Of a DNA stretch of 64,000 bases, positions 15,928-42,551 are shown in pieces. The stretch comes from Candidatus Latescibacterota bacterium. Lineage in GTDB: Bacteria; Latescibacterota; UBA2968; UBA8231. The notes under the pieces are model-generated. The model was not told the DNA's origin. It did not search any database and saw only the letters and a program-made list of their open reading frames with translations. Position 1 is the first letter of the stretch; the number at the start of each line of letters is the position of its first letter. The stretch covers positions 1,216,001 to 1,280,000 of the forward strand of contig OZ253462.1 in NCBI GenBank assembly GCA_965261395.1, written 5' to 3'. A program made the position numbers and the translations under genes.

Positions 15928-16058
15928 ACCAGTGGCGATTTGCCGCGCCGAGGGAAGGCGTAATCTTAATGTCGGTGATCTTCATGTTCTAGCTTTCGCA
16001 GCCAAACATAGAAAGCGCGACCTCGGTGTGCAGAGGTCGCGCTTAAAGATGGTGGAGG
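15928..16058. repeat. Direct repeat copy B (attL-like) overlapping the tmRNA 3' end
   Basis: Matches 5755-5886 and contains a truncated MKITDIKITPSLGAANRHW gene start. Confidence 0.9.
16012..16044 (-). terminator. ssrA rho-independent terminator
   Basis: Stem AAGCGCGACCTC/GAGGTCGCGCTT just after the tmRNA CCA, with a T-rich tail. Confidence 0.8.
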
Positions 16059-16408
16059 CGGCGGGAATCGAACCCGCGTCCGAGACCGGTTCTACCTAAA
16101 TATGCTACGTGCGTAGTCGGCCTTAGTTATCTCGCCTGTTGCGCTGCTGGCCGACGAGCCACGCAACGAGCCAGCCCGAAAAATCTCGTCCCATTCCCTC
16201 GGGCGCGGGTTTGGGACCAGCCTGCTAAGAGATGTCATTGGGGCCTGCCGCGCAGGCTCAACAGACCCCAATGGGCTGCGCTAAATTTAGGCAGCCAGAG
16301 CGTACGTGTTAGTTTCGTCGCTTAATTGTTTCCCGAGGATTTACGAGGTGTCGGGACCTCGGCACGCAATTCGGGCTTCTCCGACCCCGTCGAAGCCAAG
16401 TCGCCCCC
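16050..16408 (-). ncRNA. ssrA: tmRNA (transfer-messenger RNA)
   Basis: 5' GGGGGCGA..GGCTTCGACGGGG; 3' GGACGCGGGTTCGATTCCCGCCGCCTCCACCA; G3-U wobble in the acceptor stem; internal tag GAC GAA ACT AAC ACG TAC GCT CTG GCT GCC TAA = (A)DETNTYALAA. Confidence 0.97.
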
Positions 16409-37447: not shown

Positions 37448-39421
<1,974 letters not shown>

Positions 39422-39462
39422 TCACCGACGACCCCTTCAACCAAAACGGAAAAGAGAAAAAG

Positions 39463-40455
39463 ATGGGTAAAATTCGCGTGGGATTTATCGGCTGTGGTGG
39501 AAATGCCAGCGGGCACCTAGGGCGGATGCTCGGCATCCCCGAGGCCCAAGTGGTGGCTTTGTGCGATGTGGATCAGGCCAGTCTGCAGCGGGCCAAGGAG
39601 CGCAACCCGCAGGCCGCGGAGTTGCCGGAGTTTACCCACTACCAAGAGATGCTGGAGCAAGTCGAACTGGACGCGGTAGAAATTTCCACGCCACACACAT
39701 TGCACTTCGAGCAGATTATGGCCGCGCTGGACAAAGGGCTGCACGTGCTGACCGAAAAGCCGATGGTCTGTACTGTCGATCACGCGCACCAAGTTATCGC
39801 CAAAGCAGAGGCGACCGGCAAGGTCCTGATGATCTCCTATCAACGGCACTTGGGGGCGCAGTACCGCTATGTGCGCAATCAGATCGCGGCCGGGGAATTG
39901 GGGGATATCCAGTTTATAGCGGCGCTCCAAGACCAGAAGTGGTATCAGGGGACGATAGGGCTGTGGCGGCAGCAAATGGCGCTGTCGGGCGGCGGGCAGC
40001 TCAACGACTCGGGAAGCCACCTACTGGACATTGTGTTGTGGATGGCCGGGCTGGAGGTGGCCGAGGTGCAGGCCTACATGGAACACTTCGACTCCGAGGT
40101 GGATATCAACTCGGCGCTGTCGCTGCGCTTTGGCAACGGCGCGCTAGGGACTATTGCGGTGGTGGGCAACTCGCCGACTGGCGGGATGTGGGAGGACATC
40201 ACCATCTGGGGGACCAAGGCGGTGGTCTATATCCGTCAAGGACAGGTCTTCTACAAGACGCAGCACAGCGGTGAGGTGTACCAGGTCAATAACTTGCCCG
40301 GCTCGGCGACGCCCGACCAGAATTTCATCGACGCGATTCTCGGCCGCGACCAAGTGCAGGTGCCCCCCGAATGCGGTTTGCGGGTCATTGAGCTGACCGA
40401 AGCGGCATGGGCCTCGGCCGCCAGTGGGCAGCCGGTCAAAGTCGAGCGGAAATAG
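39463..40455 (+). CDS. Gfo/Idh/MocA family oxidoreductase
   Basis: GFIGCGG, HVLTEKPM, GGGQLNDSGSHLLD. Confidence 0.92.
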   Translation: MGKIRVGFIGCGGNASGHLGRMLGIPEAQVVALCDVDQASLQRAKERNPQAAELPEFTHYQEMLEQVELDAVEISTPHTLHFEQIMAALDKGLHVLTEKPMVCTVDHAHQVIAKAEATGKVLMISYQRHLGAQYRYVRNQIAAGELGDIQFIAALQDQKWYQGTIGLWRQQMALSGGGQLNDSGSHLLDIVLWMAGLEVAEVQAYMEHFDSEVDINSALSLRFGNGALGTIAVVGNSPTGGMWEDITIWGTKAVVYIRQGQVFYKTQHSGEVYQVNNLPGSATPDQNFIDAILGRDQVQVPPECGLRVIELTEAAWASAASGQPVKVERK

Positions 40456-40459
40456 ACGA

Positions 40460-40488
40460 TTGACCCGGTTCACTAGCTCTTGTATATT
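40460..40488 (+). promoter_or_regulatory. Sigma70-type promoter driving an intergenic transcript
   Basis: TTGACC (40460-65), a 17-bp spacer and TATATT (40483-88), followed by an AT-rich start region. Confidence 0.75.
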
Positions 40489-40494
40489 AAAAAT

Positions 40495-40799
40495 TAAGTC
40501 GAGTTCGGGGGCCACAAACCCTTGTTGCCGCTACGCTGAGGCTCGAGGCTACGCGAGCGAGCCAACCCGGCTTTGTCACTGGCCGCAACGACGCGCAGAG
40601 TTGGAGTATGGATTATGAGGCGCGCACTAGCGAAAGGAGGTGGTTCATTGAGTAGTAATTGTACCGCAGCAGGGAGGTTGATCACTTGATCAACTCCAGG
40701 TGATCGACTACCTGGTCAGAAGCACAGTCGCTTCGGCGACATAGCTTCTGAGAGTACAGCCGGGCGCACCCCACCTTAGTGGGTGCGCCCGGTTTTTTT
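40495..40799 (+). ncRNA. Putative structured non-coding RNA (or small-peptide mRNA) of unrecognised family
   Basis: Own promoter and terminator, no long sense ORF within the transcript, several hairpins including GTCGC-TTCG-GCGAC, and three motifs complementary to the 16S 3' end. Confidence 0.6.
40759..40799 (+). terminator. Rho-independent terminator
   Basis: GCCGGGCGCACCCCAC-CTTA-GTGGGTGCGCCCGG followed by T7. Confidence 0.9.
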
Positions 40800-40864
40800 G
40801 TCCGCGTTGCCCTAGTTGGTTCCCACGCGGTATTTTTGCCATATTGTCCGCGAGGAGGCCGTCT

Positions 40865-41857
40865 ATGAAACGCATCGCCAAGCCCGCAGGGGCCTATAAC
40901 ATCGTGGTAGAAGAGGTCGAGGTTCCGGCCATTGCCCCGACCGAGATTTTGATTCGCGCCGAATGTTCGCTAATCAGCCGAGGCTCGGAGATATGGCGGC
41001 GCTACGTGCGCGAAGAGGCGATCGATCACCGCGCCATGGGCTACTCGCTGGTGGGCCGAGTCGCAGAGGTCGGCGCAGAGGTTGAAGAGTTCAAAACCGG
41101 CGATCTGGTCGCGGCCCTCGCGCCGCACGCCGAATACGTAGCGGTCGAAGTAGTAGCCGGCCAGCACAGGCCTGCGGCCGTGCGCCTGCCAGCGGGCCTA
41201 GCGCCCGAGGCGGGCACCTTCTGGCCGCTGGGAGCCAGCTCGGTCCTGTGGATGTGGGAGACCGAGGCCGGCCCAGATGATGTCATGGTCATCCAAGGGC
41301 AGGGCTTGGTAGGTAGCGGTTGTATGCAGGCGGCCAAGGCACAAGGCGCGGGGCGCGTCATCGGGATCGATGCCTTGCCCCTGCGCTGCGAACTGGCGCG
41401 TGAGTTAGGGGCCGACGTGGTGGTAGACGCTAGCGCCGGTGACTCTGTCGCACAGGTTTTGGAACTGACGGACGGAGAGGGTGCAGACGTGGTGGTCGAA
41501 GCTGTGGGCGGGCGGGCCGGAGCGCAGGCTTTTGCCGAGGCGCAGGACATGCTCAAGCGCGGCGGCCTCTTGCAGGTGCTGGGGCTATACGAAAACGAAC
41601 CCCTGCCGCTCTACTCAGAAAAAATCATGGGCAAGCGCCTCATAGGCAGCTACCTCGACGCCGACCGGCGGCCCGAAGGATCAGCACGTGCCCTAGAGCT
41701 ATTGACGACGGGCCAGATCCAGTTCGCCAAGATGATCACCCACCGCTTCCCCTACACCGAAGCGGCAGCGGCCTTCGACCTGCTCTACAATCGGTTGGGC
41801 GAGACGATGGCGGTATTGCTGATGTGGGAAACTGACTTAGGAGACGACGATGAGTAG
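40865..41857 (+). CDS. Zinc-binding (MDR) alcohol dehydrogenase family protein
   Basis: SLISRGSE, GYSLVG, GQGLVG, GADVVVEAVG, MITHRFP; GAGGAGG RBS before ATG 40865. Confidence 0.88.
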   Translation: MKRIAKPAGAYNIVVEEVEVPAIAPTEILIRAECSLISRGSEIWRRYVREEAIDHRAMGYSLVGRVAEVGAEVEEFKTGDLVAALAPHAEYVAVEVVAGQHRPAAVRLPAGLAPEAGTFWPLGASSVLWMWETEAGPDDVMVIQGQGLVGSGCMQAAKAQGAGRVIGIDALPLRCELARELGADVVVDASAGDSVAQVLELTDGEGADVVVEAVGGRAGAQAFAEAQDMLKRGGLLQVLGLYENEPLPLYSEKIMGKRLIGSYLDADRRPEGSARALELLTTGQIQFAKMITHRFPYTEAAAAFDLLYNRLGETMAVLLMWETDLGDDDE

Positions 41858-42551
41858 GACCATAGAGAAGCTGTTCCGCGCCCCCTACGGGGTGCCCAAC
41901 GCGCTGCAAGTAGTAGAAGAAGGACTGTGGATTACCGATCAAATTACCGACCGGGTGGCACTGATTGAAATCGCCGAGCCGTCTGAATACGGCGTCACCC
42001 GCTTGACCCGCGATATACCTAGCGAGTCGTCCAATACCAGCGGCATGGCTTGGGGCGGCGGTTCGCTGTGGTTGGCGGCCAACGGGGCGGGTACGCTCTG
42101 GCGGCCCGCACGGCCGACGGACGCCGCGCAAGGGACGGGCGAAATTTTCGAGGTTGATCCAGATACCGGCGCGACCCGCAACCGCTATCCAGTGCCCGGC
42201 GGAGGCGGGGTTCACGGGATGGAGTACGATCCGTTTGAGGAGGGCTACGTGTGGATCACCACCCTCAAGAGCCAGACGCTGAGCAAAGTCAAGATCGCTG
42301 GCTGGTCGGTTGAGCACGTACTGGATCTGCCCTACGGGCGCGCGCACGGTGTGGTGCGGGTCGCCGACGGCATCTGGGTGGTGCATACAGCCGACCGCGT
42401 GATCGTCAAGCTCGATGTGGAGAGCGGGGCCGAGTTGGATCGAGTTATGGTGCCCGATAGCGACCCTGAACCGCATGGCCTGTCGATTTTTGGCGAGGAT
42501 TTGGTCTATTGCGACGCCACCTCTGGGTGGGTCGTCAAAATCAGCCTGTGA
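41850..42551 (+). CDS. Hypothetical protein, probable beta-propeller
   Basis: Repeating PNAL/TSGM/VHGM/AHGV/PHGL blades with GLW/SLW/GIW motifs; overlaps the upstream gene. Confidence 0.7.
   Translation: MSRTIEKLFRAPYGVPNALQVVEEGLWITDQITDRVALIEIAEPSEYGVTRLTRDIPSESSNTSGMAWGGGSLWLAANGAGTLWRPARPTDAAQGTGEIFEVDPDTGATRNRYPVPGGGGVHGMEYDPFEEGYVWITTLKSQTLSKVKIAGWSVEHVLDLPYGRAHGVVRVADGIWVVHTADRVIVKLDVESGAELDRVMVPDSDPEPHGLSIFGEDLVYCDATSGWVVKISL

Follow-up and report, generated by a model that had tools for sequence, protein, structure and literature searches.

A candidate extended-Shine-Dalgarno small mRNA with a mini-ORF and a stop-codon hairpin in Latescibacterota

Introduction

Small mRNAs that pair with the whole 3′ tail of 16S rRNA have, in the parts of the literature considered here, been reported twice before, as the rre genes of Alphaproteobacteria and as the unexplained small RNA (sRNA) Ms_IGR-5 of Actinobacteria. 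As far as the part of the rre report used here describes it, rreB is a 165-nt stand-alone mRNA with a 17-nt Shine-Dalgarno sequence (SD), a GTG start and an open reading frame (ORF) of 14 codons; the RNA binds the 30S subunit, is weakly translated because of the 17-nt SD and the GTG start, and is more stable once the start codon has been replaced (Hahn et al. 2016, PMC5711450). Ms_IGR-5, on a similarly partial view of its sources, is a validated but uncharacterised sRNA that is NAD-capped in M. smegmatis (bioRxiv 10.1101/2021.12.14.472595) and has been detected in Streptomyces by Rfam (PMC8079986, PMC8780764); its homologs in M. abscessus and M. smegmatis show footprints of the ribosome (PMC4974804). 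Here we analyze a locus with these features in a 64,000-nt stretch of the genome of a Candidatus Latescibacterota bacterium (assembly GCA_965261395.1, contig OZ253462.1, positions 1,216,001 to 1,280,000, forward strand; hereafter the window). The locus, at window positions 40460-40799 on the + strand, is a unit of promoter, structured RNA and terminator that would yield a transcript of about 305 nt and is present once in the 6.55-Mb genome.

The initial annotation had described this unit as a structured non-coding RNA gene of an unrecognised family. We consider it likely that the locus is instead a stand-alone extended-SD small mRNA of the rreB/rreR and Ms_IGR-5 kind that would work by a docking and toggle mechanism. 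We make this assignment because the architecture is the same and because sister families carry near-threshold matches to Ms_IGR-5. On this reading the unit RNA is a larger variant in a new phylum, with an added 5′ domain and a toggle of three segments (X, Y and Z, described below), that the existing Rfam model misses. A further known element, the STAB-SD of Bacillus cry genes, resembles an SD, binds the 3′ end of 16S rRNA and affects RNA stability, not protein output; it differs from the unit in being a cis element in a long mRNA leader with no mini-ORF of its own. Our literature search, which did not extend to supplements, found no paper on such RNAs in Latescibacterota and no functional study of the extended-SD mini-ORF class beyond PMC5711450.

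Results

An SD complementary to the 16S rRNA tail

The 16S rRNA gene of this genome ends ...GGATCACCTCCTTTCT. The segment that we term SD1 (Table 1) can pair with 15 consecutive bases among the last 16 of this gene, through 13 Watson-Crick and two G-U pairs, with 11 of the Watson-Crick pairs uninterrupted; judged from sequence, SD1 could pair with practically all of the free 3′ tail. Such complementarity is rare in the genome: the 13-mer pattern of SD1 occurs at exactly three sites in 6.55 Mb, namely the antisense of 16S rRNA, the unit RNA and the SD of one ordinary gene. In the SD1 core, GAAAGGAGGTGGT(Y)C, the letters GAAAGGAGGTGGT were invariant in 23 of 23 same-genus copies and were kept in 41 of 42 copies from other genera, the remaining copy reading GGAAGG. 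The commoner form in the family, AGAAAGGAGGTGGTCC, would make 16 pairs including one G-U, supposing that the relatives' 16S tails are the same. Thermodynamic prediction placed AAAGGA in a less paired state (mean unpaired probability 0.66) than GUGGUY (0.17) in 39 of 39 transcripts. We also considered an "anti-SD" in the 5′ domain that would mask SD1 and rejected it, as duplex energies did not improve on those of shuffled domains (15 representatives, mean z +0.22, 1 of 15 below 0.05).

A mini-ORF whose start, stop and frame are conserved

SD1 is followed by a mini-ORF whose weak start codon lies 7 nt 3′ of GGAGG and is TTG or GTG in most copies. For an unbiased count of this frame we used 43 sequences found with a covariance model of the RNA core (R1, 153 positions) and no ORF filter; 42 were complete and one was cut by a contig end. 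The frame was present in all 42 complete homologs, starting 2-7 nt after GGTGGT and ending at a stop inside X. A larger set of 62 distinct sequences was selected for the ORF, Y, Z and a T-run (two g20 copies, for example, were dropped), so that the presence of the ORF in 62 of 62 holds by construction. In this set the frame had 9-13 codons, with TTG (47), GTG (10) or ATG (5) as the start and TGA (57), TAA (4) or TAG (1) as the stop, and it began 2-3 nt after GGTGGT in 57 sequences. The distance from SD1 to the stop fell into seven length classes that cover all residues modulo three (42, 15 and 5 sequences). In each class the start codon was set off from GGTGGT by a matching 3, 2 or 7 nt, such that the distance from start to stop was always a multiple of three. 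The other two frames carried stops in 57 and 48 of the 62 sequences.

Insertions and deletions within the genus followed the same pattern. Both indels inside the mini-ORF were of 3 nt (two copies lack AGT, and the window has an extra GCA), and those outside it were of 1-2 nt, except for a 4-5-nt terminator-loop difference in 4 of 23 copies. The TAA and TAG stops break one pair of the X:Y helix described below (five A-C mismatches at k=0), and since they are retained nonetheless, the codon is kept as a stop and not as a pairing partner. Because start, stop and frame survive both substitutions and indels, we conclude that the mini-ORF is probably translated, or at least read by the ribosome, and that this reading is under selection. 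With this mini-ORF behind an invariant extended SD, the description of the RNA as non-coding does not hold. The same annotation was right that the unit lacks a long sense ORF: the largest, and the only ones of at least 30 residues inside it, are 40424..40618 (64 residues) and 40573..40689 (38 residues), and the upstream part of the latter is disrupted in relatives by a 1-nt indel and a TAA. A longer ORF from ATG 40615 was likewise rejected, with TAA in two relatives and a 1-nt indel upstream.

Selection on the frame did not extend visibly to the peptide. The conserved motif CAGG(G)AGGT is read in different frames between genera, so that the residues differ while the RNA motif stays constant, and within the genus the invariant stretches of the ORF showed no synonymous third-position drift. 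Codons 4-5, in turn, varied at all three positions among same-genus copies, with changes that included Cys/Arg and Asn/Lys/Thr. From the frame shifts of the motif and the lack of synonymous drift we conclude that the constraint probably acts at the RNA level, and that the peptide is poorly constrained and probably not the output. The motif includes an internal SD-like sequence, SD2, whose distance to the stop is 9 nt in 52 of the 62 distinct family sequences and 10 nt in the other 10. The Ms_IGR-5 consensus and the sister families have SD2 as well.

A covarying hairpin over the stop codon and a competing fold

The 3′ part of the RNA is organized around three segments. X holds the final codons together with two bases of the stop (the first two). 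Y is a repeat of the SD1 letters AGGTGRTC, to which X and Z are complementary. Across the 62 sequences, X and Y formed standard pairs in 94.2% of cases over 13 positions, compared with 23-52% in a slid register, and four positions had two-sided changes (TA/CG/TG, GC/GT/TA, TG/CG/TA/AT/GC and TA/GC). On a model-fitted alignment of 49 rows, which leans towards the model and includes six weak reverse-strand rows, 7 of 13 X:Y pairs had two-sided changes. X:Y together with the flanking CAGG:CCTG helix gave the 51-nt segment a minimum free energy of -25.0 kcal/mol. When the ORF was masked, Y folded with Z in the best fold (-9.8 kcal/mol); Y:Z was 91.9% paired and nearly invariant. Single-sequence folds of 18 representatives contained X:Y in 13 cases and the Y:Z form in five. 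SD1 could also pair with either complement, with 98.4% standard pairs for SD1:X (8 positions, 62 sequences) and 92.1% for SD1:Z.

For this region the initial annotation had drawn two hairpins, GGAGgTTGATC/GATCAACTCC and CCAGGT/ACCTGG. Both are pairable; they are also invariant, and so uninformative, and as written they overlap by 2 nt. As a fold the combination competes with X:Y, which is conserved across genera and about 10 kcal/mol more stable locally (-15.1 kcal/mol for the pair of hairpins). The hairpin that follows had been drawn correctly: TCAGAAGC/GCTTCTGA and the inner GTCGC/GCGAC, at 40727-40740, were 100% and 98% paired with two-sided changes in the 23 same-genus copies. Between genera this hairpin varies in sequence and in length, and some genera lack it. 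The cUUCGg loop emphasized in that annotation is present in the window and is not conserved, relatives having other loops.

The 5′ domain, delineated from RNAalifold on the 23 copies and from pair counts, also carries covariation. In its long helix 12 of 12 pairs had two-sided changes across genera, with 86.9% of cells paired on the model-fitted alignment. The hairpin GGCTCG/CGAGCC, predicted at the outset, was 100% paired with a two-sided change, and TTGTTGC/GCAACGA, from the same prediction, pairs in part but weakly (78%; GC in 14 copies, AU in 4, broken in 5, at one pair). Covariation among homologs, which had been proposed as a check, was thus found both within the genus and across genera. 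The domain measures 70-183 nt in other genera and is missing in the sister families f2 and f4 (see below). RNAalifold further predicted a long-range GTAC/GTAC helix closing the 3′ domain, which we rejected, since it did no better than shuffles over the 31 sequences scored.

Table 1 Features of the unit and its flanks (window positions)
Feature	Position	Strand	Description
Extended Shine-Dalgarno, SD1	40632..40646	+	GAAAGGAGGTGGTTC; complementary to own 16S rRNA tail
Mini-ORF	40648..40689	+	TTG start, 13 sense codons, TGA stop; predicted peptide (M)SSNCTAAGRLIT
Internal SD-like, SD2	40672..40678	+	GGGAGGT, 9 nt before stop
Long imperfect hairpin	40670..40715	+	covers last 6 codons and stop; CAGG 40670-40673:CCTG 40711-40714, X 40677-40688:Y 40697-40708
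Alternative small hairpin, Y:Z	40696-40701 with 40710-40715	+	competes with X:Y
Variable hairpin	40716..40751	+	TCAGAAGC...GCTTCTGA around GTCGC-TTCG-GCGAC
Structured 5′ domain, ~137 nt	40495..40631	+	hairpins 40506-40511/40519-40524 and 40540-40545/40558-40563; long helix 40565-40576/40595-40607
Sigma-70-like promoter	40460..40488	+	TTGACC 40460-40465, 17-nt spacer, TATATT 40483-40488; 10/12 consensus matches
Intrinsic terminator	40759..40799	+	16-bp GC-rich hairpin 40759-40792, then T7 40793-40799; from folding
Methionyl-tRNA synthetase gene	37493-39421		upstream flank
GFO/IDH/MocA oxidoreductase gene	39463-40455		upstream flank
Zinc-type dehydrogenase gene	40866..41857	same strand as unit	downstream flank

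A stand-alone transcription unit

The promoter was the sole sigma-70-like site that a promoter scan detected across 39400-42000, with 0.9 expected by chance. Its boxes, noted in the initial annotation as near-consensus, were kept in 23 of 23 same-genus copies as TTGAC. and TATATT-like boxes around a variable spacer. Homologs from other genera have comparable TTGxxx-N17-TATATT boxes upstream, with a regular-expression match in 17 of 18 representatives. The predicted transcription start lies near 40495. At the other end, the strong terminator that had been proposed is borne out by RNAalifold, in which the pairs of the 16-bp hairpin are preserved in 23 of 23 same-genus copies, and nearly all homologs end in a hairpin and a T-run; a simple terminator scan listed none on the + strand, this hairpin included. 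The folding energy of the unit gave z-scores of -4.04 on the + strand and -4.23 on the - strand. With values so alike, folding energy alone gives no strand, which follows from the promoter, the T-run and the mini-ORF.

Metatranscriptome coverage, the other check that had been proposed, pointed to the same unit. In runs X8 and X9 the RNA contigs covered only 40529-40786 of the interval 40300-41000, at a word depth of about 320 with nothing on the flanks. These two runs had contigs and depths identical to the decimal and are filed under different studies; we count them as one data set. Run X4 belongs to another study; here the depth was 1136 for a 180-nt contig over 40614-40766 and 22 for a contig over 40804-41000, and a 3147-nt contig of depth 564 entered from upstream and ended at 40643. 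The contigs support an abundant, discrete RNA, short of proof. Together with the unit's own promoter and terminator, they bear out the earlier description of the RNA as independently transcribed.

The surroundings of the unit varied. At 14 loci of different genera, the flanking ORFs came from many Pfam families, the GFO/IDH/MocA gene was retained upstream in four, and the downstream ORF was on the opposite strand in nine (by a crude largest-ORF rule; the call at L056 is probably wrong). No fold in competition with the terminator was found. Past the terminator and ahead of the zinc-dehydrogenase gene, the window has a conserved promoter-like TTGGTT-18-CATATT (40816-40845), both boxes of which are constant, with a differing spacer, in more distant same-genus copies. 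Given the varied downstream genes, this second promoter and the lack of a terminator-competing fold, the unit does not appear to be a leader in its own family.

Conservation and distribution

A DNA search matched the unit in 22 of 24 other genomes of the same genus, at 81-96% identity, and gave no match in 16 genomes of three other families. Mean column identity was 0.88-0.99 over 40500-40800, compared with 0.68-0.80 in the upstream gene and 0.46 in the gap between its stop and the promoter. R1 reached further. In the family of the window RNA (f1), it found one match per genome in 67 of 75 genomes, representing 15 of 18 genera; the eight f1 genomes without a match were mostly incomplete (58-92% by marker genes). 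In three sister families of the same class (f2, f3 and f4), R1 matched 0 of 31, 1 of 3 (marginally) and 0 of 22 genomes, respectively.

A simpler pattern, SD1 followed at a distance by GGAGGT, was present throughout the class: in 64 of 75 f1 genomes, 31 of 31 f2 genomes, 3 of 3 f3 genomes and 21 of 22 f4 genomes, nearly always once per genome. By comparison, only 5 of 36 genomes from other classes of the phylum had it.

Sister families carry an Ms_IGR-5-like RNA

At gathering thresholds, the only Rfam match in the window was a tmRNA at 16050-16408 on the - strand (194.2 bits), and no family reached threshold in the region 40300-40950. The best match there below threshold was RF01867 (CC2171, a Caulobacter sRNA), which scored 20.6 bits (E 0.036; threshold 75 bits). 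The alignment takes in the extended SD (GAAAGGAGGUG...) and the GUG that follows; nothing aligns past the SD and the terminator. CC2171 is probably the Caulobacterales rre analogue of PMC5711450, judged from the part of that report considered here. Several known RNAs could be set aside. A divergent RNase P RNA, signal recognition particle (SRP) RNA or tmRNA was rejected, as all three were located elsewhere in the genome, in keeping with the initial annotation. As it had also stated, the unit is not a 6S-like rod: the genome has no RF00013 match at E 0.001 or better, and the fold is multi-domain. A CsrA sponge of the CsrB/RsmY type was rejected too, PF02599 not being found in the single-contig 6.55-Mb genome (95% complete by markers). 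That a single-contig genome should have no RF00013 match at E 0.001 or better means that its 6S RNA is too diverged or absent.

The Rfam model of Ms_IGR-5 (RF02471) gave no match to the unit at E 10 or better in 40300-40950 and none in the genome at E 0.1 or better. Across the class, however, its distribution was the mirror image of that of R1. It matched 30 of 31 f2 genomes and 21 of 22 f4 genomes, almost always once per genome and with 23-46.6 bits, and exceeded the 45-bit threshold in only 1 of 132 genomes of the class; in f1 it matched 2 of 75, both partially, at other loci and spuriously. This mirror image suggests that the sister families carry an Ms_IGR-5-like RNA in place of the unit RNA. 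In the sister-family type, SD1 lies about 8 nt after the predicted start, with no 5′ domain. The f2 and f4 RNAs (L199-L210, L095, L122 and others) have a TTGACT-N17-TATATT promoter and an 11-codon, ATG-started mini-ORF, and their 3′ part is unlike that of the unit. In f3 (L094, L225-L227), SD1 is followed by a 10-codon, ATG-started frame and a long hairpin that pairs the SD2 region with a CCCACCTC-like arm; from its sequence this form looks intermediate between the two main types.

The Ms_IGR-5 consensus itself resembles the unit RNA. It opens with GGAAGGAGGUGGUC, after which comes a frame of about 12 codons that begins with UUG and has GAGGUG some 11 nt ahead of its UAG, and the early ORF letters grade between the types (...ACCAGTGGAGGT, ...ACCACAAGGAGGT, ...ACCACAGGGAGGT). 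Its consensus helix pairs GGUGGU with the 3′ end of the frame; a counterpart in the unit might be SD1:X, but SD1 is invariant and X also pairs with Y. The two differ in that the SD of Ms_IGR-5 is at the 5′ end while SD1 lies 138 nt from the predicted 5′ end of the unit RNA, and in the sequence that follows the stop (segments X, Y and Z with the variable hairpin). On these sequence comparisons we take the unit RNA as a diverged, 5′-extended counterpart of an Ms_IGR-5-like RNA. The RNA had initially been said to belong to an unrecognised family; no Rfam family matches at threshold, but that description does not hold, its architecture being that of the rre small mRNAs and Ms_IGR-5, insofar as the parts of the sources considered here describe them.

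Comparison with the rre small mRNAs

As described in the part of the rre report considered here, rreB and rreR resemble the unit in being small, stand-alone transcripts that have a sigma-70-type promoter and a terminator of their own. In both, the SD is extended on both sides to pair with nearly the whole 16S 3′ tail, with its 5′ part predicted to be single-stranded and its 3′ part in a helix, and is directly followed by a very short ORF with a mostly non-ATG start. Both also occur in one copy, conserved within the lineage and in variable genomic context. On the same partial basis, the unit differs in phylum, in its length of about 305 nt (165 nt for rreB), in the structured domain of 70-183 nt that precedes the SD, and in having no detectable sequence similarity beyond the SD. 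The ORF has 9-13 codons in the unit family and 14-18 in rre genes, and the complementarity amounts to 15-16 bp including one or two G-U pairs, compared with 16-17 perfect pairs. SD2 at 9-10 nt before the stop and the covarying stop hairpin are noted here from the unit's side.

Discussion

A possible docking and toggle mechanism

We propose that the unpaired GAAAGGA would act as a seed for the 30S subunit, from which pairing would spread over 14-16 bp and lead to very tight 30S docking. Translation from the weak start would be infrequent. An elongating ribosome would have to melt the -25 kcal/mol hairpin; melting would free Y to fold with Z and expose SD2, which could re-pair with the anti-SD while the ribosome stands at the stop. 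The RNA would thus toggle between a closed form and a ribosome-held form. By analogy, the likeliest output is control over how long the RNA itself lasts at the ribosome, which has been reported for rreB, or else a read-out or retention of free ribosomes. A link to rescue could be a further output, and a peptide is an unlikely one.

Several points weigh against this interpretation. The case for docking, weak translation and the switch is built on sequence, energetics and analogy. The complementarity in the window amounts to 15 bp with two G-U pairs, short of the 16-17 perfect pairs of rre genes, and it was counted on the end of the 16S gene, not on a mapped mature 3′ end. SD1, Y and Z are nearly invariant, which places SD1:X, SD1:Z and Y:Z beyond covariation testing. 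The Rfam Ms_IGR-5 model does not match the unit RNA, whose score stays short of the 45-bit gathering score. The RNA contigs show neither strand nor true ends, and run X1 has a single 2195-nt contig over the entire stretch, which is uninformative about a discrete RNA and makes read-through or DNA carry-over possible. Finally, over-production of rreB had no effect on growth, and in the part of the report considered here its authors call the function elusive (PMC5711450).

Alternative explanations

If the RNA were the mRNA of an effector peptide of 9-13 residues, its RNA features would only tune synthesis. The frame is open in all homologs, a Ser/Thr-rich N-terminal start and a C-terminal Ile/Thr-Thr recur in many genera, and the rre authors regard RreB and RreR as conserved small proteins (PMC5711450, in the part considered here). 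However, the nucleotides of the SD2 region are read in different frames between genera with a change of residues, codons 4-5 vary while the invariant ORF stretches lack synonymous third-position drift, and the length ranges from 9 to 13 residues; peptide coding alone would also leave the 140-nt structured leader and the -25 kcal/mol stop hairpin unexplained. We therefore regard a mini-protein gene as unlikely. The anti-SD-like segments X and Z (CACCUG) raise another scheme, that of a trans-acting sRNA that masks the SDs of target mRNAs, with translation of the mini-ORF only timing the exposure. Both segments are complementary to AGGUGG-type sites, as their pairing with SD1 illustrates, and the competing folds hide and free them in turn. 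Against this, no target was found, though no search aimed at one was made; X and Z are paired in every predicted fold, and what is constant in the class is SD1, the mini-ORF and SD2, the 3′ part being different in f2 and f4. We give this scheme a rather low probability.

Still less probable is the original view of a purely structural non-coding RNA whose SD- and ORF-like features are by-products of GGAGG/CCUCC-like helices. The strongly covarying structure and the fivefold recurrence of SD1-like and anti-SD-like words are as such a view would have it. Yet the start is kept through TTG, GTG and ATG changes, the stop is kept through TGA, TAA and TAG although the latter two break an X:Y pair, and 1-nt shifts of the start are compensated downstream, which is unexpected without translation. 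The least credible of the alternatives, in our judgement very improbable, makes the unit a cis leader or attenuator of the zinc-dehydrogenase gene with the mini-ORF as its leader peptide. The order of small ORF, alternative hairpins, terminator and same-strand gene would suit such a leader, and a similar element precedes smpB in metagenome-assembled genomes (MAGs) titled Chloroflexota (see below). It is countered by the failure to find an alternative fold involving the terminator, by the conserved promoter-like site before the gene and by the differing families and frequently opposite strand of the downstream ORFs in the 14 loci. We continue to favour the extended-SD small mRNA.

A wider class of extended-SD small mRNAs

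Selection on the unit is clear for the start, stop and frame of a 9-13-codon ORF, and not for the peptide, and it is accompanied by a covarying hairpin over the stop. An entire class of an uncultured phylum shares this design, at a single copy per genome, and the Rfam Ms_IGR-5 threshold misses most non-actinobacterial members. For a wider view we scanned one genome per species with a pattern of SD1, a gap, GGAGGT, a gap and CCRGGTG, which returned 103 stretches, 80 of them listed; some chance matches are expected, and the pattern itself forces the presence of SD2. The matches listed comprised the unit's own family and a second type in records titled Latescibacterota, about 15 MAGs titled Chloroflexia or Limnocylindrales, two records titled Armatimonadota, a few titled Acidimicrobiia and others. 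The second Latescibacterota type scored 27-31 bits on RF02471 (threshold 45).

In the MAGs titled Chloroflexia or Limnocylindrales, the element has a promoter-proximal GAAAGGAGGTGGT, a 15-codon, ATG-started mini-ORF, GGAGGT 8 nt before TAG and a terminator-like hairpin. Among the matches listed, it lies 164-223 nt before the SmpB gene at 14 of 15 loci (L101, L105, L107, L109, L110, L115, L118, L127, L136, L144, L160, L166, L170 and L191), and five of five genes tested were Pfam SmpB. From this arrangement the element looks like a ribosome-sensing leader of a rescue factor gene. A link to trans-translation in the genome of the window itself was rejected, as its smpB (4158546-4158971) is 2.9 Mb away, and we take the position of the tmRNA 24 kb upstream of the unit as a coincidence.

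Taken together, the Latescibacterota RNA and the smpB-linked element suggest that an RNA device centred on the ribosome is widespread. A bolder proposal, which we consider doubtful but possible, is that rre, Ms_IGR-5, the unit RNA and the smpB-linked element form one ancient, near-universal, single-copy class of "ribosome gauge" RNAs. A 30S subunit would dock through its entire anti-SD tail and go on to translate some 12 codons, running into a hairpin in which the stop is hidden, and the second SD would hold the terminating ribosome. The trapped state would report the supply of free ribosomes, or stalling, to decay and rescue pathways or to a downstream gene, and in Latescibacterota the 5′ domain and the X/Y/Z toggle would give two stable states. 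The seed, the weak start, the SD2 spacing and the stop-codon hairpin are features testable in tractable relatives (Mycobacterium smegmatis, Streptomyces, Bradyrhizobium).

The pattern scans also gave further stand-alone-looking elements with an extended SD and a mini-ORF. The elements titled Acidimicrobiia (L116, L126, L183, L193) scored 22-23 bits on Ms_IGR-5, and some of them are perhaps chance matches. L222 and L223, which come from a different family of the phylum, carry tandem SD-like sites, two in each. L153 is one more such element; some of these, too, could be due to chance. In the pair titled Armatimonadota (L102, L139), possibly a chance match, an element with an extended SD and a mini-ORF adjoins a tRNA gene.

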